A program made the position numbers and the translations under genes. From contig CT868007.1 in assembly GCA_000165425.1 (NCBI GenBank), forward strand, positions 62,001 through 126,000: a stretch of DNA of 64,000 nucleotides, read 5' to 3'. Below the pieces are notes generated by a model. The model searched no databases. It was given only the letters and a program-made list of their open reading frames with translations, and was not told the DNA's origin. Below are positions 27,225 to 38,300 of this stretch, piece after piece. Numbering within the stretch: position 1 is the stretch's first letter; each line of letters starts with the position of its first letter. This stretch comes from Paramecium tetraurelia. Taxonomy: Eukaryota.

Positions 27225-27819
27225 TCAGTTCCCTGCATCTTTCTGCTTTTTCTTTTCTATCCCATTTTTAGAAAGTTAAATTAATACGTTATTTACGTGA
27301 TCAGCTGTCTTAGCACTACATTCAGCAAACTGTAAATTATGTGACTGGCAATACTCTTATGCTTTAGCAGTCTCAACTCTTTTATATAGATATAACTCTA
27401 ATTTACTATTTCTATTCTTCCAAATCATTTTTATTTCCAATCACCAACAATTAAACGTTCTTCTCTCCGTATTTTTTAGTTTCAGGCAACCAATACTTGT
27501 CTATTTCCTCAAAAGTATCTGCTTAGGTAACATCATAAACCATTATTATGGCTTCTGCCCCCTTAATATAAGTATAGATCAATCTAACCTTGTAATATGC
27601 ACTTGTAATTGTTCTGAATCTCTCCTATCCTGCAGTATCCCAAATCTGTAACTTTACATTGTTGTCCTCCAGATGCAGAGTTCTCTATCTGAAATCCACA
27701 CTAAGAGATTAGGATTCACTAAATTAGTCACCAGCGAATCTCTATATTAAAGAACTCTTTCCAACCCCAAGATTACCTGTCAGGACAAACTTGAACTAAT
27801 GATCCTTTTATTTGATCAT
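27225..27819 (-). CDS. Divergent Rab1-like small GTPase
   Basis: GNLGVGKS, WDTAGQERFRTITSAYYK, IGNKND and ECSAK motifs; ends GIEKKKQKDAGN* with no Cys; 2 introns. Confidence 0.9.
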
Positions 27820-28031
27820 TTATGATTTCTTTCCAAATATTAATATTTAAATATCCTTCTAAGGATCATATATAGTGCAAATGCGCGATAACAAACTGAC
27901 GCAATAACTTAGTGTAAAAAAGGAAAGAATAATATTATATATATATCGAGGTTAAATTTTATTTAAGTTTCTCTTTTAATTCACTCAAAATTTAATTAAA
28001 ATAATTATTGAAGTGATTTTTACTTGAAAAT

Positions 28032-29993
28032 ATGAAACAAATTGAAATCGACAAAGAATCAGACCAACCAACAATTCAAGAAGAAACCTTGTTAAAGACT
28101 GAATAATATTTGTGTCCAGCCAATAGAAATCATAAATTGTAAAGTCTTGACAAATTATTATCTCATCTACATACATGCAAAGAAGTTAAATTGGCTGACA
28201 AACCTCGATTCGTATACTATTGTTAAGTATAACCCCTATCTATACAAGTATTATCAAGGCCATTGTTTTTTGACAACAGAGGACCGAGAGAAACATGAAA
28301 GGACTTGCCAATGGAGAATAGGGTTAAAAAAGTAACCTGATCCCACAGCCAACAAGTATTCAATCATCTAGCCTCTGGGCAAACCGATTAATCCTCAGCA
28401 ACAGCAAAAACCTGTTGCTTACACAGATTAGCAACAAAGAAATTATGAGTATGCCATCAAGAAAGGTTTAATCAAGAAGAAGGCATATGATGAATACATA
28501 CCCGAGGATGGGTTCGAATTCAACAAGGATTTTAAGAAAGTGGATGAGTTGATGAAATTGTAAATCTAGAAAAACATTTCAGGTTTATAATTTTATAATT
28601 TTATAATAGATTAAAATTAGAATAATATACAGTTTACATTTAAAACCCATTTTTTTATGGTCCAGCCTCAAAACAAGTAATTGATCGAATTTCTGATAAA
28701 GAGAATCCCTTATAATCTGTACTTTAGGAAACATAAGGTAAATGTACAATAATTCAGTTTAGTTTTATAGAGAAGAGGAGAAGAATTAAATTGTCTAGAA
28801 GTTTCTAATGAAGGAGAAGAAGAGGGAGTAGAGAAGACAAAAGGGCAAGCCTGATATTAAATATAATATGGTTAATCAGATACCCAATGATATCCTATTG
28901 AGTTTGTTGAATTTCAATACATATGAAGATTATTTAGACAAATAGATGGATGTAAAAATATATTCTAAAATAGGAATTCGTAAATTGTAAGAAGATGGAA
29001 GAGGAAAATGTTCTTACGTCTACGTATTTGATGACCACAGGCAAAAAGGCGATTTTCATTCTTTAGATTGGCAGGGACTTCAAGGATATCTTCGGTAGGA
29101 ATATCAACCTATTGGATTTTAAGGCTATATTTGCAGATTTCCTAGCATTTTCGTTTAAAAGGGATGAGAATATGAATAAGCAGATTGAGCCATATCTAAC
29201 TTAAACATCAGAACATGTAGAGAGTGGTAAAAATTAAAAACAAAATTAAAACATTTTTGAGGAAGAGATAGACATTTAATAGTAGAGATTGATAGGAGAA
29301 TTGAAGGCTAAACTTGAGATATAGAAATAAAAGAACCAGGAGGATAAAAGTCAGTTGGAAAGAAATCAAAGGGAATTGCAGGAGTTGATTGAGAAGAAAA
29401 AGTGTTTGATTTAGAAGGAATCAGATATTGAACAATAAATAAAGAGAGTCAATGCTTAAATCAATTCATATCATTCAAAGATAAAATCATATAAATAGGA
29501 GTTGGAATTGAAGAATCAGGAAAAAATAAAAATCTTATATGATTAGAAGGAGAAAGAATTGAACGAGTTTATTGATGCATTGAATCAGTAGGTGAATCAA
29601 TATGAGAGCAGTCAATAGGAGATTAAGGATGAGATCTAGAGTTTGAAGGAGGAAAAGCAGAAGTTGAAAAGTACAATTAATAGATTACAACCGTTTAAAT
29701 TATAATTGGAGAGATAATTGGAGGATCTTCAAAAGCAGGAAAGCAGTGTCCCTTAGTAGATGACTTAGTCAGAATATTATACTGGGAATGAATTTGTGTT
29801 TGACATTTCTGATAAAATAAAATGTAAGGCGTGTAAGATAAGAAAAATAAATGTTGTTTATATTCCTTGTGGAGATGCAGCATTGTGTAAGATTTGCCAC
29901 GAAAAGTTTGAATAGTTGTTACCTCATGTCTGTCCGATATGTGAGCAGTTTGTAAAAAGAGTTTATCATTTTATGTGGGAAAATGAAGGATGA
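28032..29993 (+). CDS. Tandem CHHC (U11-48K/GTSF1-type) zinc finger, coiled coil and C-terminal RING protein
   Basis: CPANRNHKLQSLDKLLSHLHTC and CQYYQGHCFLTTEDREKHERTC near the N-terminus; long heptad region at about 29250-29750; CKAC-x11-CGD-x3-CKIC-x11-CPIC at the C-terminus; 4 tiny introns keep one frame. Confidence 0.8.
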
Positions 29994-30174
29994 TACATTA
30001 TATATTATATATGTTCTATAAAATCAGATGTAAACCTTGAATGGTTCAAACTTAAACAGGTTTTACTATTTTTAATTGATATTTTAATTATCAAATAAAC
30101 ATAACAGTCTTACAGCTTAATTTACAATATAATTTTGTTTATAATAAACTTAATATTAATTATTTTTGGATTCT

Positions 30175-31659
30175 ATGACATCAAATGTGTGTGGATCAAG
30201 TTAATACTCACTATTCCAAGGTGCCAATACCCTTAAATGTCTAAACATTAAAGATTTTTGTGGATCGTATTCCTAATGTCTTTAAGTAAATGATTAAATT
30301 GGGGCAATGGGTTATGGATGTTGCAGAGAAGATTATCTTTACCCAAGAGCGGCCAACATCATCGTTTATATTCTAATCATTCCAATAATTGGGATAGGCA
30401 GTTTAGGAGCTTTGGGAGGTAGAATCGTTAATTAAGCATTAGGTGGTGTGGTGAAGAGGCCATTTTTGGAGGCTGTTCTAAATTTCAATTCAGGTCTTTC
30501 AGGAAACATTACTGCGTGTCTTATGTTTGGAGCCCAATTAGTTAATCAGATAATTATCACATTCTAGAAGTAATAAAATTATAGAATGAAAGACATCCCT
30601 ACCACCCTTAGCGTCCAGCTGTCAACTATGAGGTCGGGATGATTTATGCCTTGGCCATTCCACTTTCTATGCAATTTGGATAGGAATTAGCAAGCTACAT
30701 GCCGCTATTACCAGTTTTAACTATATAGATGATGTTTTTCATTGTCATTCTTCCAATTTGCCTATTGTACGCAAAAAGACAAGAAGTAGTTGAATAAGAA
30801 TTAGAGGAAGATTACACTGATTCTCATATTTCTATGACAACTGCTTTTAAAGGCTCAATTCAAGATGAAGCTTAGGCTGCCTTAGTGTATAAATAGTTTC
30901 TAGATGAATCTCATTAAATCCTACCTCTCTTACCCATCCTTATTGCCATTGGAAGTTTCGCAGCTAACGAAGCAGTGATTCTTTCTAGAACAACGCTTTA
31001 TTAGACATCGCCTTATTACCCAAAGAGATCTTCAAATTAAAAACTAGATCCATGCGATCCTTGGAATTTCTATATGATGATTGTATTATTTGCAGTGAAC
31101 ATTTTCATTACTGGATTAACCTTATTGTATTTCAGATACAAAGAACAAATTAAGGACAATGTGAGGTACAAATTAAAGGAAAGATACTTTACTCCAACCA
31201 GAAGGTTCTTTAAAATATACGGAGCTGGATGTGCTACTGGTTTTATAGCAGGATTTTTAGGCATGGCAGCAGGTTTAACGATGTTTGTTACAATGGTATA
31301 ATTTGGTTTGGTTGCTGCTTCTGCAGGGGCAACAGCAAATTACGGTTATTTTATTGTGTGTCTACAAGTATTTGTATCATTCATGGTCAGCGACTCTGGA
31401 ATGCCAATTGGTGATCAGTTTTTCTTTTACGGAATAGGGGTAAGTGTAATTGATAATGCCTTAGATTTTAGGTGTCTTGATATTCACCAACCTAGGCTAT
31501 TACTACATTAATAAATATAAAATAGGGCATATATTATTTTATATTGATTTTGCCATTGTAGTCTTAAACATAGCTGGTAACATTGCATGGGGAGTAGAAT
31601 AAAATCATAGATAAGGTTTTAATTCTATAGTCGATATCAATCAATCCTGTAGAACATGA
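30175..31659 (+). CDS. Sulfite exporter TauE/SafE family membrane protein (paralog A)
   Basis: GSLGALGGGVVKRPFL, RHPYHPQRPAVNYE and GFIAGFLGMAAG motifs; 3 introns. Confidence 0.85.
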
Positions 31660-31722
31660 TTTTATTTATTTATTAAAATAGTTTATTATTAATAATATTT
31701 ACTATCATTTTTTAGAATTTCA

Positions 31723-32545
31723 ATGAACTAATGCTTAATATGTTTCGAAGACACTGAGTTTAGTCTCAATTGTTAACATTACTATTGTTTGAAATGTCTA
31801 GTTAACATGATTTAAGTGAAACTTAAGGCATTATAACTAACATCAGATGATTATAAATGTCCAGAATGCAAATTCAAGTTTTCTGTTGAAGTCTTCAAAA
31901 ACACAGAAATCTATAATGATTTAATAGAATATTCTTTAAAACATAATTGCATCGAAAACTTAAATGATGATGAAATGATTGTCGACTGTGGTCATGATGA
32001 TTGCAATAATAAGTTTATTGTTAGCAAAAATGCTAGTAAATATTGTTTTCATTTAGAATATTCCAGATGTCCTGTTTGTAAATAAATTTATTGCTTGAAT
32101 TGTCGTAAACCATATGAATCTAAGTGTTGCCAATAAGCTATCACTGGAAAGTGTCCTAGATGCAAGATAAAGGTTTTTAAAGAGGAAGGGTGTAATTTTT
32201 TGAAATGCCAGTCCCAATATTGCAAAGGATAGGTCTACTTCTGCGGAATATGTTTTCTCATTTTAAAAAAGGAAGATCATTACTCACATTTTATTGATAA
32301 TAATCCCTATAATGCTTGTAGAATAGGCAAAATCAAACCGAATAAGTAGAAATGTCCTGGATGCTTAACATTAAATCCATTGCAATGCTAAATTATTGAA
32401 AATTTAAAGTATTCAAACTTAAACTTATGAAAGTTAATGCTATTGTAAGAGTAATGTTTGTAAAGAGAGTCTGTACTGCTTAAGTTGTTCAAAGAAGATC
32501 TAGAAGAATGAAGCTCATGAGTGCAAGCAATGTTCTATTATGTGA
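31723..32545 (+). CDS. RBR (RING-IBR-RING) E3 ubiquitin ligase with extra Cys-rich domain and C-terminal CaaX
   Basis: RING1 CLICFE..CQHYYCLKC..CPEC; IBR CGHDDC..CPVC..YCLNC; RING2 KCPRCKIKVFKEEGCNFLKC..C..FCGIC; ends HECKQCSIM*. Confidence 0.87.
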
Positions 32546-32743: not shown

Positions 32744-35700
32744 TCATTCTTCATTTTCTTAGATTAAATTGACAGATCCTTCGACTTACAAGAATGTTCC
32801 ACCACCTTTGATGATTCTGCCTGAGTTAAATCCTTGGTTGGCGAGTAGAGCTGACAAGATTCTATCAGGAGGAGGTGCAGGATCAACTGGCCACTCTCTT
32901 GGTTCTGGACTTGTAGTAAATGCACCATCACCGATACCCAAATACCCAATCAAAGGCTTCACCCTAAAGAAATGAGAATGATCAATACATCAAATTGTTT
33001 GCCATAGCCATCCTCAGAGAAGAACACACTCAAATAATTTGGAACAAAGTGATAGATCTCCTCAAACAGGTAAGAGTTGGCTGTTTAATCGATTTAACGA
33101 ATGTATGCATAGGCTTATTTAAGATGGAAGGAATATCCAAAGTAGAAGTATGTCCATTTACCCCAATATTTACCAATTTCAAATTTCTTGTCGACTAAAG
33201 ATATAAATATAAATAATTACTTGAACCAACATCATCATCTATAGTTTCAATGTCTCCATAATCATAAGTACTGAAATACCAGACACCTTTATCAATGAAG
33301 ATGGACAGAGTTCTATCTCCTGCATTGTCATTATCAGCTTGGATATCTGGAGTATTTTATGTGACTCTGACAAGTGAAGTCCAATCAGTAACATTCTTTA
33401 ATTTATTACCCTTAGCAAATCCATAAACACTGTATTCAAAGACACCACTGTACTTCTCTTCATATGATTTGAACACTCTTTAAGTCATCTTGGCTTTTTC
33501 TACTTATACTGGTTCATTATCTTATTTATCTTTGTATGGTGGATAAGGTCTGAATTTGGGAACAATAACGTTGAGTAAGTCTTCACTTGAATCAATATAA
33601 CTGTTCTTGCCCAAAAATGCTCTTGGATCAAACAATTTACCTTAGAAGGCTGAATGTCCGAATTCTTTCTTTCCAATAACGAGTCTGGCATAATCTCTCA
33701 ACAACCAATGTTTAGCACTATCAATTTCAACTCTCTTAACAACATTTTGATGTGTAAGATAGACATATCCAATACCCTTTGGTCCAGTTGGAATTCTCTT
33801 GTAGCAGAAATAGACGAAATTCCAATATCCTTCTAATTCTTTATCAAATTTGGTTCCTGTTGTGATCTCATTCTTATCAAGAACTGCATCATAAGTGCTG
33901 AATTTGTATTCTCCTCTTCCTACAAATGCTGATACTGTTCTGTCTCCATTCTTTTAAGCATCTTCGTATTAAGCATTTGTTGTGAATCTAAATATGGAGT
34001 GGGATTCAGCTTTTTCTAATAAAATGAATGGATAGTTCATCAACCATCTAGTCCATAAACCAATACCATATTCATATATGGCTTCAATGTCAGATCCTGG
34101 GAAATTAGTCTATGTAAATTCAACATCCAATGCTGGTTTGTCATCTTTAGCATAAATCAAAGCATCGGCATCATTTTAAACATAGAATTCAAAGTAATTA
34201 TTAAGTTTGTATGGGATCCAAGCTGGAAGATCAACTTCTACTTCGACCTTATCAACATAGTGCCAGCATTAGGTGCTACCATAACAAGCATGAACATGTC
34301 TAGATTTACCAATGAAATTCTTATTAATTCCATCCTTTCCGAAATATACAGCAAGGTATTTTGGAGAGAAGTGCAATACTTTCTTTAATAAACCACCTTT
34401 GCTGACATCTGGGAATCCAAAGAACCAACCAGCGTATTCATCTTGTCTGGAATATCCAACCCAAATGTACATCCAAATTCCTCTATATTCTCCTAAAGCA
34501 ACGTTTGTATTTCTATTAAGATTGAAATCAGTATCAATAAATCCAATGTCATAGGTTCCAATTTCCATATCTCCACCTTTTTGAATAACTGACAATGTTC
34601 TATCTCCTAGCAAATTAGCATCCTTACAAGAATCCTGGCTCATTATTGGTTAATCTGATAACAGTTTATGCCTCAGTATCATCTAAACTTCCATAATATT
34701 TGAACCATCCATAGACTGAATATTATTCTGTTTCAATTGCTCCATCTTCATATAAAAAGGTATTATATGTTTCAGTATCTTTGTTATCAGCACCTTAGAT
34801 TTCATAATCCTTTGTTCCTAATTCTTCGTCAACTGGGACCTTGTATTATTCAATCCATGTTTCATATTCAGCGATTTCATTAATAAATGATCCTCTTCCA
34901 AATCTGACAACTGCATGAGCTATTCTACCATTAAATCCATAAACAGTAGATTTCCATTATCCAACATAGAATCTAACATAATTGTTAGCAGGATCAGCAT
35001 CAAATGGATCGAAAACTGTTCTTTGCACTTACTTCAATTTGTTGAAATTAACATATCCAACAGCAATTTACTTCAATTTTGAATAACTGAAATAGATGTA
35101 ATTCCAATATCCATCTAAATTCTTTCCATAATTAACAGGTCTTCCTGAACCAGCCCAGAATTCATAATTTCCTCTTCCAATGTATACTGCAAATTCAGCT
35201 TCATCTTAATCTGTAAATCCTAATCTACCAACCAAAATACGCTCAGGTTTCTCATAGATTCTTTATGGATTTGTGATGAAGAATTTAGTCCACATTCCGA
35301 ATCCATATTCATAAACACCATCTGTTACCCAATCTGGTTCATCATGAAGTAAAGTATCATATTCAGATTCTGTTTTGTGATTCAACCATTTAGGATCATA
35401 TGTTTTCAATTATACTCCAGGCCATAACTTAATCTTGCCAGTCTTATAGTCATCGAAATCTATAGCAGATCCCCATGCACCCTTTCCAAATCTGATTGTT
35501 GTGTAGGCTGTCTTTCCATGGAAGAAAAATTAATGTCCTTGTCCCAAATAGAGTGCCCAATATTTGGCTACAACATGCCAACCTTTGAATTGTTTTTCAA
35601 CTTTGTCATCTGGCCATTCCATGTAGTATGTGAAATCACCATGATTATATCCAAAGTATGCATATGTCCATAATTATTGTGATTCTTAAGCAATAACAAC

Positions 35701-38300
35701 TTTTTCATCGATGTCACTGAACTTGTCCTTCTCTTCGACTGTATATGTAGAGAATTAATATTCATTTTATTCAGTTTACCATAATGAAAGTGCTTTCAAT
35801 CCATGAGGAATTATTCCTACTTCTGGTTCGTTGGATGTAAATCTAAATATAACTTAATGAGCTCTTTCAGATCTTCTTACATATCTAAACCAAGTGGATA
35901 CTGAATATTCTCTGTATCCATCTAAATCCCATTTGAACTTGGGATCATCGATCAAACCATCATATTCAACTTTGTCATAGTATTATTTCTCCTAATATTC
36001 TAATTCAGGGTCTGTTGGAACAGTGTATTTGGTTTCAATCAAATTTTTCATCTCTTCCTCTGTCTCAACAAATGAATTCTTATTCAAGACAACTCTAACA
36101 TTGGTGATGACTCCGTTGAATCCTTTGAATCCCTTCCAAAGTCCAGATTGGAATTTAATAGTTTTAACAATAGCTGGTTGAGTAACTTTGAATGTGACAC
36201 TCTTGATTACTTAAGTTCTACCCCAGTAAATATAACCATTGGCTTTTCCTTCTTTATATCCGAAATAGACATAAATCCATTCAGCATCCAAATACTTGCC
36301 ATAATCCAATTATAATTCAGTCACAACTTCTCCTTCAAATACTTAGAAATTATAGAATCCTTCTCCAATAGTTGTTACTAATCTATTTGTGTCATCTCCA
36401 CTCAAACCTCCAACAGCCAAGACTTCCTTCTTTTCTGCAATCTTAACCTTTCCATTGTATCTGAAATATGTCCATAATCCATAACTGTATTCAACTGATG
36501 TCTTGATTCTGCTATCAGGTCCATCTTCAACATCTTTTTCCCAAGGTGATGTTTCTTATGTAACAACACTGTCAGTTCTCTTGTCTAAAGTATAAACAAG
36601 TTATTCTAATTCTGGTTCTGGTTCATCTGGGAATTCTAATCTACCGAAATCGTCATCTTCTTCCTCTTCAACTAATTCCTCAACAATCTCCTCAACTATT
36701 TCTTCAACTATTTCCTCAACTATTTCCTCAACAATCTCTTCAACAATTTCCTCAACAATTTCTTCTACTGTTTCTTCTTATTCTTCAACTTTTTCATCAT
36801 CTGGTGTTGGTTCTACAACAACTTCCTCTTCTGGTTCTTCTCTAACAATAACTTCTTCTTCTGGCTCAGGTTAAGGTTCTGGTTTAGGTTCTGGTTATGG
36901 TTGTGGTTTAGGTTCATCTTCATCATCTTCAACAATAATAATGATTGGTTGTTCTTAACATCCTGGATATCCACAACTTGGTTAATAAGCACTTGGACCT
37001 GTTGCTGCATCAATCAATGTATCAATCAAATCTTCCAAGACATCATCTCCACAACCATCTTCCTCTTCTGATTCCCATTCAAATTCCTCTTCTTCCTCAA
37101 CCTCTTCTTCTTCTTCTGATTCTGGTTCAGGAACTGGTTCACATTCTTTAGCCTTTTTGGCTTCTTCAGCTAATCTCTCAGCTTCTTCTGCTCTTTTTCT
37201 TGCCTCTTCAGCTGCCTCCTAAGCCTCTTTCAATCTTCTTTATGCTTCCTCGGCATCTAAGCACGCTTCTTCTTCCTTATTTTAGGCATTTTCCAAAATC
37301 TATTATGATTCTGCTGCTTTCTCAGCTGCTTCTTATGCCTCTCTAGCATCTTTTTCAGCCTATGTTTCAGCTTCTTATTCAGCCGACTTAGCAGCATCTA
37401 ACTCTTGTTCTGCTTCATGTTCCAATTCCTCTGCTAATTCCAATTCCTTCTCAGCTTATTATTCTAATAATTCAGCTTCTTCTGGCGTGATATCTACTCT
37501 GTTCTTCAATTCTTCTAATTCTCTAGCTTCTTCTTCCTTTCTTCTTTCTTCCTCTGCTGCTGCTTCAGCTGCTGCTTTTGCTTCTTCTTCTGCTCTTAAT
37601 CTGGCATCTTCTTGTTCTTATTCTTTTCTTCTTTCTTCTTCTTCAGCTTTGGCATCAGCCTCTAATTATGATGCCCATTAATCCTTGCATTAAGATGTTT
37701 TTTCGTTGACTCTTGTGGCAAGATCATAGAGTTAATCAATTTCAATGGGGATGGTATTTAATTACAATTAGATTTCAGTTATTTGTTGGATCAACTCTGA
37801 GATCTTGGTAGCTATGGTTTAAGCCAATTATAATTTGTCTTCATCACCTAACATATAGATTTATGATTAATACTCTTTGCTTTATTAAGTACTTCCAAGT
37901 ATCCCAAAATATCGTTAATATCATACCAGGATGAAGTAGATTCGATTTGAGAAAGTGATTTGAAATGCTTTGAGATCTGATGATGCAACTATTTGACTTG
38001 AATAAACGATCCTCCTTGAATGTGTTAGACTGTTAGCAAAACTCTATCAACTAAAGCCTTGACCATAGCCAAAACCTACAAATCTCCATCAAATCCTTCT
38101 TTGTGTTTGACAATGTCGATCCATTAATCAATATCATGCTATGCTCCCAACTATTCCTTATAGCTTGGACTCTCGCAAGTCCATCCAGAGGGATCAATTG
38201 ATAAAATTGACTCCAAAGGGGTTATCTACGTCCTAGCAGACGTCTTGAACTGTAAAGACACGCTGACTAGCAGCCATGCCACTAGCAATTACTTTAACAT
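32744..38300 (-). CDS. Giant secreted protein (about 1830 aa): signal peptide, charged helical stalk, PE/EEIV repeats, six roughly 200-aa beta-rich (ConA/LamG-like) domains
   Basis: MLKQLLVAWLLVSVSLQ signal; recurring [EQ]Y[SG]xxx[WF], DRT[LV]S and WxY[IV]YFGY motifs about every 600 nt; introns near 37848-37873 and 33195-33220; no TM seen. Confidence 0.85.
36664..36770 (-). repeat. 12-nt coding tandem repeat (VEE[IL]) of about 8-9 copies
   Basis: The + strand shows repeated ttcctcaac(t/a)a(t)-type units; the minus strand translates as VEEIVEEIVEEI... Confidence 0.85.

Follow-up and report, generated by a model that had tools for sequence, protein, structure and literature searches.

A gene of Paramecium tetraurelia that joins GTSF1-like tandem CHHC fingers to a coiled coil and a variant IAP-type RING

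The CHHC zinc finger, with the published consensus C-P-x4-H-x9-H-x3-C (Andreeva & Tidow 2008, PMC2562017), is known from U11-48K, TRM13 and GTSF proteins, all of which have simple or RNA-enzyme architectures; the fold has been characterised as RNA-binding in three settings unrelated to one another, and the globular domains of the U11-48K and GTSF families as one or two fingers only (PMC2562017). GTSF1/Asterix proteins (mouse 6X46; silkworm 9NHB/9NHC) are small, with solved chains of 121-149 amino acids (aa). Their N terminus holds two CHHC fingers in tandem, joined by a short linker, with x9 spacing and a proline in each; the first finger (ZnF1) is basic, the tail is disordered and there is no other domain. 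The GTSF-family proteins studied so far act with small-RNA machinery (PMC11602119, PMC11724296, PMC13650160). Here we describe a gene of Paramecium tetraurelia, GSPATT00030820001, in which a tandem CHHC module homologous to that of GTSF1 stands on the same chain as a coiled coil and a RING. It lies on the + strand of a 64,000-nucleotide stretch of P. tetraurelia macronuclear DNA (contig CT868007.1, positions 62,001 to 126,000), which is referred to as the window; all coordinates are positions in the window.

Paramecium has a small GTSF protein of the usual kind, PtGtsf1 (PTET.51.1.G0490019), which is required for ubiquitylation of the PIWI protein Ptiwi09 and for degradation of the scanning RNAs (scnRNAs) that match the macronucleus (MAC) (PMC11724296, PMC11602119). 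Ptiwi09 ubiquitylation depends on Gtsf1 and Ema1 and accompanies removal of MAC-matching scnRNAs (PMC11724296, PMC12529928); the Ptiwi09 level rises with MG132 (PMC11724296). Recruitment of E3 ubiquitin ligases 'could' follow, in the authors' words; they name no such ligase, and both papers state that it is unknown (PMC11724296, PMC12529928). The E3 ligase ZSWIM8, which recognises target-engaged Argonaute, is cited there as a model for Ptiwi09 and scnRNA decay (PMC11724296, PMC12529928). A 2026 review places the arrival of Gtsf1 and Maelstrom at Piwi after Piwi has engaged a nascent target (PMC13269885).

The spliced 621-aa product of GSPATT00030820001 is identical to the deposited protein at 621/621 residues (P0004; XP_001427579.1; A0BNR4), and its parts are arranged as follows.

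28032..29993, + strand: whole coding region of P. tetraurelia GSPATT00030820001, 621 aa (621/621 identity to P0004; spanned by RNA contigs)
28113..28178, + strand: predicted CHHC finger 1, C28-P-x4-H34-x10-H45-x3-C49 (motif at 28113; aligns with GTSF1 ZnF1)
28221..28308, + strand: predicted CHHC finger 2, C64-x5-H70-x10-H81-x3-C85, split by intron 1 (spliced motif at residue 64; aligns with GTSF1 ZnF2)
28309..29243, + strand: middle region, residues 86-372, with poorly predicted structure (coordinates include introns 2-4)
29244..29741, + strand: predicted long helix or coiled coil, residues 373-538 (single helix H373-538 in DSSP; heptad test)
29817..29963, + strand: C-terminal RING of the zf-C3HC4_3/IAP type, residues 564-612 (PF13920 above cut-off)

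This is a real and new domain fusion, and the protein is a good candidate for an E3 ligase directed at ribonucleoproteins (RNPs). What is new is the fusion of two known modules, together with a subgroup of x10-spaced CHHC fingers that the Pfam model misses; the gene itself is annotated but uncharacterised, and the database name of A0BNR4 is only 'RING-type domain-containing protein'. The initial annotation of this locus, made from the sequence alone, knew of no description of such an architecture, and the literature search likewise found none for a CHHC/GTSF1-type module fused to a RING. Neither GSPATT00030820001 nor any other GSPATT000308 identifier occurs in the literature searched, and GSPATT00030820001 does not occur in the readable supplements of PMC3091696 and PMC11602119.

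Both fingers have C-x5-H-x10-H-x3-C spacing (residues 28-49 and 64-85) and are separated by a linker of 14 aa, exactly as the initial annotation had placed them at 28113-28308. A scan of the 64-kb window in six-frame translation for C-x5-H-x9/10-H-x3-C gives one occurrence, compared with 0.035 expected from 200 residue shuffles; the spliced protein has two, the second of which is visible only after splicing. Eight positions (C28, P29, H34, H45, C49, C64, H70 and H81) are invariant in a 21-sequence alignment, while C85 is present in at least 90% of the sequences and absent solely from one truncated row. Spacing of x10 is the norm across the group; x9 is found solely in finger 1 of P0024 and P0028. 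ZnF1 is basic in six of the seven distinct rows read in alignment A2, with a net charge of +3 to +5 (+3 in the P. tetraurelia protein and +5 in five of the six other rows); this agrees with the RNA binding of mouse GTSF1, whose ZnF1 is reported to contact RNA via a basic ridge (PMC13650160). The tandem CHHC module is predicted to bind both zinc and RNA.

The CHHC assignment is made with family profiles; PF05253 (zf-U11-48K; cut-off 21.1 bits), the model by which the initial annotation proposed to check it, gives no match on the spliced protein. A single-sequence phmmer search of the PDB with the N-terminal 110 aa returns just two irrelevant phage baseplate chains (E 0.43). Against 1.84 billion representative sequences, the same 110 aa find 25 matches at E <= 1e-3; at least one copy of the motif is present in 24 of these and at least two copies in 20. 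Two of the short proteins, P0024 (75 aa, 25.5 bits) and P0028 (97 aa, 31.7 bits), pass PF05253. Six of the 25 matches were left out of alignment A1: three one-finger fragments (P0008, P0013 and P0019), P0016, P0020 and P0031. P0016 is a repeat protein without a CHHC motif and is probably a false match. P0020 (130 aa) and P0031 (155 aa) have three x10-spaced CHHC fingers each; the x10 subgroup therefore also exists in a stand-alone, multi-finger form.

When a profile of 21 sequences is compared with 177,635 PDB sequences, GTSF1 ranks first (6x46_A, 1.9e-7). Further matches are U11-48K 2vy4 (5.5e-5), GTSF1 9nhb_E (1.1e-4) and U11-48K 8r7n_F (4.8e-4); beyond GTSF1 and U11-48K, nothing in this search falls below E 0.68. 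Rows positive for PF05253 could have driven this result, and the profile was therefore rebuilt from nine long proteins only, eight with a detectable RING and one (P0021) that ends without it. With this control profile GTSF1 is again on top (9nhb_E 1.3e-5, 6x46_A 1.6e-5; U11-48K 0.033), and each GTSF1 alignment is one stretch over both fingers. P0028 matches GTSF1 at 1.4e-6, and hhalign aligns P0028 with the control profile at a probability of 95.6% (E 1.1e-8, 66 columns). Judged by these profiles, the fingers, NEVERTHELESS, are of the CHHC/GTSF1 type and homologues of the GTSF1 tandem module.

Structure agrees weakly with this assignment. The AlphaFold2 (AF2) model of residues 1-110 has a predicted local distance difference test score (pLDDT) of 78.5, with 85-92 in the core. 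A structure search independent of Foldseek, covering 48,161 representative chains, has GTSF1 chain 9nhc_E of the SIWI-piRNA-target-GTSF1-Maelstrom complex as its top match (Z 4.1, root-mean-square deviation 3.5 A, 68 residues over both fingers; next chain Z 2.7). In Foldseek, GTSF1 entries take ranks 2 and 3 of 272, behind a CTCF finger array. The description of the fingers as GTSF1-like in the initial annotation is borne out in that the family profiles and the Foldseek-independent structure search rank GTSF1 first and hhalign aligns the control profile with P0028; it is not borne out by PF05253, and the spacing is x10, not x9. The predicted orientation of the two fingers to each other is nearer to that in PIWI-bound 9nhc_E, the free nuclear magnetic resonance model 6x46 not being among the listings at Z >= 2; the match in orientation could be an artefact of a flexible linker.

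The full-length AF2 model has a mean pLDDT of 57.4 and is confident in the fingers, the helix at residues 373-538 and the RING (563-615); residues 107-375 are mostly below 50. The middle region contains an acidic and aromatic stretch at residues about 125-160 (28412-28520; NYEYAIKKGLIKKK...IPEDGFEFNKDF, including NYEYAIKKGL...IPEDGFEFNKDF), which is conserved in the aurelia species, in P. bursaria (alignment A3) and in the fragment P0019. This stretch sits where animal GTSF1 has its aromatic PIWI-binding region; the resemblance is one of position only. The helix that follows is 166 residues long, uninterrupted (pLDDT 72-88) and contains only two Pro or Gly residues. Its hydrophobic occupancy of heptad positions a and d is 0.671, a value reached by none of 500 shuffles (0.48 +/- 0.031), in line with the long coiled coil seen in the initial annotation.

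PF13920 matches the RING of the spliced protein at 34.7 bits, above the cut-off of 27 (E 1.6e-8), and the aurelia proteins as a group at 34.3-34.7 bits (E 1.6e-8 to 2e-8). The nearest solved RINGs are those of cIAP2 (8.5e-6), cIAP1 and XIAP (to 1e-4), then CGRRF1 and MYLIP. The eight ligand positions are C566, C569, C581, D583 (codon 29874-29876), C587, C590, C602 and C605. The segment 'IPCGD' aligns with 'IPCGH' of cIAP2, and Asp 583 therefore occupies the position of the His ligand; the IAP-type RING with a His-to-Asp change (PCGD) had been recognised correctly in the initial annotation. Relative to the C3HC4 cross-brace, seven of eight ligands are canonical and ligand 4 is Asp 583. Six RING cysteines are invariant in 16 aligned sequences. 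At ligand 4, 11 relatives whose RING is complete (ten of them in A3) have His and one has Cys; Asp is found only in the four aurelia species. The C-terminal 83 residues are 100% identical among these four species, so the Asp variant is under strong constraint and not decaying. Some RING variants accept Asp as a zinc ligand, and IAP-type RINGs work as dimers that activate E2~ubiquitin. The RING is predicted to have E2-dependent ubiquitin ligase activity.

The architecture is conserved from the P. aurelia species to P. bursaria and environmental eukaryotes. The same parts follow each other in the same order, end to end, in 16 full-length relatives (A3), of which four come from the aurelia species, one from P. 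bursaria (P0009) and eleven from environmental or run assemblies. A twelfth long environmental protein, P0032, has fingers and a full RING; it belongs to the cluster of P0023 and stands outside the alignment. PF13920 is found in six of the seven first-round representative matches of at least 478 aa (E <= 0.0033; only P0027 is above threshold), P0021 (478 aa) ending without it, and in all six further long relatives (only P0036 above threshold). All nine finger-profile proteins longer than 194 aa have lengths of 535-642 aa. Among the four aurelia species, identity is 97-100% in the coiled coil, 94-99% in the fingers and 80-96% in the middle region. Orthologs of 621-622 aa are present in P. octaurelia (98% identical), P. 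pentaurelia (92%) and P. primaurelia (91%). No ohnolog was seen in word-index searches with the C-terminal open reading frame (ORF) and with residues 1-330, which returned only the protein's own 90% cluster; the genome itself was not searched.

A single transcript runs from the fingers to the RING. The gene has five exons (28032-28226, 28249-28582, 28610-28737, 28763-28951 and 28974-29993), with the start ATG at 28032 and a TGA stop at 29991-29993 in the ciliate code (code 6). Its four introns are 22-27 nt long and all GT..AG; these and the untranslated region are as follows.

28227..28248, + strand: intron 1, 22 nt, GTA...AAG (missing from contigs X4 and X7; reads ending at 28226 continue into exon 2)
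28583..28609, + strand: intron 2, 27 nt, GTT...TAG (missing from both RNA contigs, at 28581 in an equivalent placement; ortholog models agree)
28738..28762, + strand: intron 3, 25 nt (missing from both RNA contigs; reported at 28736)
28952..28973, + strand: intron 4, 22 nt (missing from both RNA contigs at 28952)
29994..30034, + strand: 3' untranslated region (contigs end at 30016 and 30034; depth about zero past 30048)

Four public runs were aligned to 27700-30300, two as contigs (X4 and X7) and two as raw reads (X20 and X21). Contig X4 (1931 nt) covers 28032-30034 and contig X7 (1888 nt) covers 28033-30016, both with zero mismatches. They skip exactly 96 letters, as four pieces of 22, 27, 25 and 22 nt; both are spliced RNA, because DNA would retain the introns. 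The stranded oligo-dT reads (922 in X20 and 576 in X21) cover every exon, and all are in the orientation that fits RNA from the + strand. Where reads end at an exon border, their remaining letters are those with which the next exon begins, as in five reads at 28226 that continue into exon 2. Outside the interval from about 27960 to 30048, depth is about zero. According to the initial annotation, separate transcripts for the finger and RING regions would have refuted the fusion; the intron-free contigs span both, and the contigs and stranded reads place fingers, coiled coil and RING in one spliced frame, as it had proposed. An alternative pair of introns, 28560-28609 and 28738-28757, puts exon 3 in the wrong frame and was overruled by the ortholog models and the RNA contigs.

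At the 5' end, X4 starts at the A of the ATG (28032) after 24 adapter-like letters and X7 starts at 28033; raw-read depth in the bin 27961-28047 is only 2.2-2.8. The mRNA leader may be extremely short or absent. The next in-frame Met lies far downstream of the fingers, and the true 5' end therefore matters.

The protein has the N-terminal tandem CHHC fingers that define the GTSF1 family, with their short linker and basic ZnF1, and GTSF1/Asterix is both the best sequence-profile match and the top structural match of these fingers. Family members are small and have fingers as their only globular domains; in contrast, the Paramecium protein is 621 aa long, has x10 spacing twice and no proline in finger 2, and carries an added coiled coil and RING. 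PtGtsf1, compared here by description, shares the organism and the tandem CHHC module; unlike GSPATT00030820001 it is small and has no ligase domain. U11-48K (2VY4) and TRM13 have the same type of finger (C-P-x4-H...H-x3-C) and give significant profile matches, but they have a single x9 finger in a spliceosomal or tRNA-methylase context and no RING. The IAP-type E3 ligases (cIAP1, cIAP2 and XIAP, with CGRRF1 and MYLIP) likewise end in a RING of this subfamily, in which a short stretch follows the final Cys. They differ in having His as ligand 4 instead of Asp, and BIR, FERM or other domains upstream instead of CHHC fingers and a coiled coil. ZSWIM8 is a functional analogy only, and no similarity of sequence or domains is claimed: it is the substrate receptor of a multi-subunit cullin-RING ligase, whereas GSPATT00030820001 would be a single-chain RING E3.

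The preferred reading, held tentatively and at somewhat less than an even chance, is that the protein is a RING ubiquitin ligase with the GTSF1-type CHHC module as its recognition end, the fingers docking on an RNP, and that it is probably dimeric. The RNA-protein complex on which the fingers would dock is most likely a small-RNA effector, with a target-engaged PIWI/Argonaute and an RNA-dependent RNA polymerase (RdRP) complex as the two options, because every GTSF-family protein that has been studied works with PIWI/Argonaute or RdRP. By pairing two chains, the coiled coil would let the RINGs at their C termini dimerise as IAP-type RINGs typically do. The RING would then recruit E2~ubiquitin and mark the bound complex, or a neighbour, for turnover, with Asp 583 standing in for His in zinc coordination and function preserved.

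A number of findings weigh against this reading. Concerning the fingers, PF05253 gives no match on exon 1, which holds the complete finger 1, at E <= 1, and none on any of the four aurelia proteins at full length, even when the limit is relaxed to E <= 10. Both fingers depart from the CHHC consensus in having x10 for the defining x9, and while finger 1 keeps C-P, finger 2 has C-Q and lacks the Pro. None of the 272 Foldseek matches of the finger model to the PDB reaches E <= 0.001, and the VIA Z of 4.1 for 9nhc_E is low in absolute terms. Concerning the RING, the canonical His is replaced by Asp in exactly the aurelia lineage, and the protein may therefore lack activity. Concerning the partner, contact of animal GTSF1 with PIWI is attributed to the central aromatic region, not to the fingers alone, and a nematode GTSF binds the RdRP RRF-3 through its finger region alone (PMC13650160); a PIWI partner can therefore not be predicted from the fingers by themselves. 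Since such fingers also bind partners other than PIWI, the 'self-contained RNA-guided degradation factor' of the initial annotation is a hypothesis, not a finding.

The protein could instead be an RNA-binding E3 ligase of a general kind, unconnected with PIWI or small RNAs, its fingers holding some RNA or RNP in the manner of the single CHHC fingers of U11-48K and TRM13 and its RING regulating mRNA, tRNA or snRNP factors; this is thought rather unlikely, though it comes nearest to the preferred reading. Other E3 ligases combine RNA-binding domains with a RING. The profiles also match the U11-48K finger (5.5e-5, and 0.033 with the control profile), and a general role would suit the three unrelated settings in which the CHHC fold is described as binding RNA (PMC2562017) and the reported absence of other Paramecium CHHC proteins from Ptiwi09 immunoprecipitations (PMC11602119). 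Moderate depth in X20 and X21, runs of unspecified physiological state, and spliced contigs in several studies fit constitutive expression. Set against this, tandem fingers with a short linker are a mark of the GTSF family, the control profile matches GTSF1 about 2000-fold better than U11-48K, and all GTSF-family proteins studied act with small-RNA machinery (PMC11602119, PMC11724296, PMC13650160). Even if it acts elsewhere, the protein adds a fourth context for the CHHC finger. It is improbable that the His-to-Asp change disables zinc site 2 and leaves a scaffold or adaptor that works via fingers and coiled coil, for example as a tethered GTSF1-like cofactor. Such an inactive RING would agree with the restriction of Asp at ligand 4 to the four aurelia species, as opposed to His in 11 relatives and Cys in one; it sits poorly with 83 C-terminal residues that are 100% identical in these four species, with a PF13920 match still above threshold, with seven intact ligands and with the acceptance of Asp in some RING variants.

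Two further explanations concern the identity of the parts. Very little probability is given to the finger motifs being chance Cys/His patterns or fingers of another class (TRAF/XAF1/CEP104-like or C2H2-like). The missing PF05253 match and the C2H2 array at Foldseek rank 1 (E 0.096) would be explained in this way, as would the ESM Atlas look-alikes, in which CEP104_ZnF (0.88) comes first and TRAF and XAF1 types are present, all below 0.9 and leads only; these also include a cluster that is 58% PF05253 (score 0.87, likewise a lead only). A chance origin or another class is hard to reconcile with 0.035 chance motifs expected per window, ligands that are invariant or nearly so in 21 sequences, significant PDB matches of both profiles that consist of GTSF1 and U11-48K only, and a 95.6% hhalign probability with PF05253-positive P0028. 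The chance that two adjacent genes, one for a small finger protein and one for a coiled-coil RING protein, have been wrongly joined is practically negligible. The AT-rich segment 28583-28660 does look intergenic, there is an in-frame ATG at 28869, and read depth dips to 2.7 and 1.4 in the bin 28570-28656, compared with 8-17 alongside. This dip is explained by 58-nt reads meeting a 128-nt exon between two introns; X4 and X7, which are independent and intron-free, run from 28032/28033 to 30034/30016 in one open frame, and the fused form is kept in 16 full-length relatives.

Within the preferred reading of an RNP-directed RING ligase, a more specific role can be formulated: by combining the recognition module of GTSF1 with a RING in a single chain, GSPATT00030820001 is an obvious candidate for the unnamed Ptiwi09 ligase. 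That it is in fact the missing E3 of ciliate scnRNA selection, acting in turnover of scnRNAs and Ptiwi09, is considered unlikely. In such a role the fingers would recognise Ptiwi09 locked on a maternal-MAC transcript, alone or beside PtGtsf1 and Ema1, and the RING would ubiquitylate the target-locked Ptiwi09, leading to destruction of MAC-matching scnRNAs. If this were true, the protein would be the equivalent, with sensor and ligase united in one chain, of the target-directed microRNA decay mediated by ZSWIM8, and its protist relatives would mark a wider and so far undescribed class of 'GTSF-RING' ligases that police Argonaute/PIWI complexes. Other CHHC proteins distinct from PtGtsf1 have been reported in Paramecium (PMC11602119, PMC11724296). 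The PSI-BLAST 'GTSF homologs' G0170076, G0860105 and G0160267 are named in PMC11602119, and GSPATT00030820001 may or may not be one of them. Three CHHC proteins of Paramecium are reported as absent from Ptiwi09 immunoprecipitations, and these too may or may not include GSPATT00030820001 (PMC11602119).

The flanking genes encode a GTPase and a TauE/SafE-like protein, and neither suggests a small-RNA context. Upstream, 27373-27822 on the - strand encodes a divergent Rab/Ras-family GTPase (PF00071, E 1.8e-35), with about 210 bp between the two ATGs. Downstream, 30294-31544 on the + strand encodes a weakly TauE/SafE-like membrane protein. Two genes downstream, 31660-32427 on the + strand is an ORF rich in Cys that weakly matches RING models (PF00097, E 6.4e-4; PF13445, E 7.2e-4). 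It has more CxxC clusters after the RING and looks like a RING-between-RING ligase; nothing ties it to GSPATT00030820001. Further on, 33030-35030 and 34549-37917, both on the - strand, are very long frames without a Pfam match. They share recurring modules, such as '...GDRT(L/V)S...G.Y.FSTYD...' and 'YEYG.G.WT..', and one of the two frames has an acidic EEIVEEIV repeat tract.

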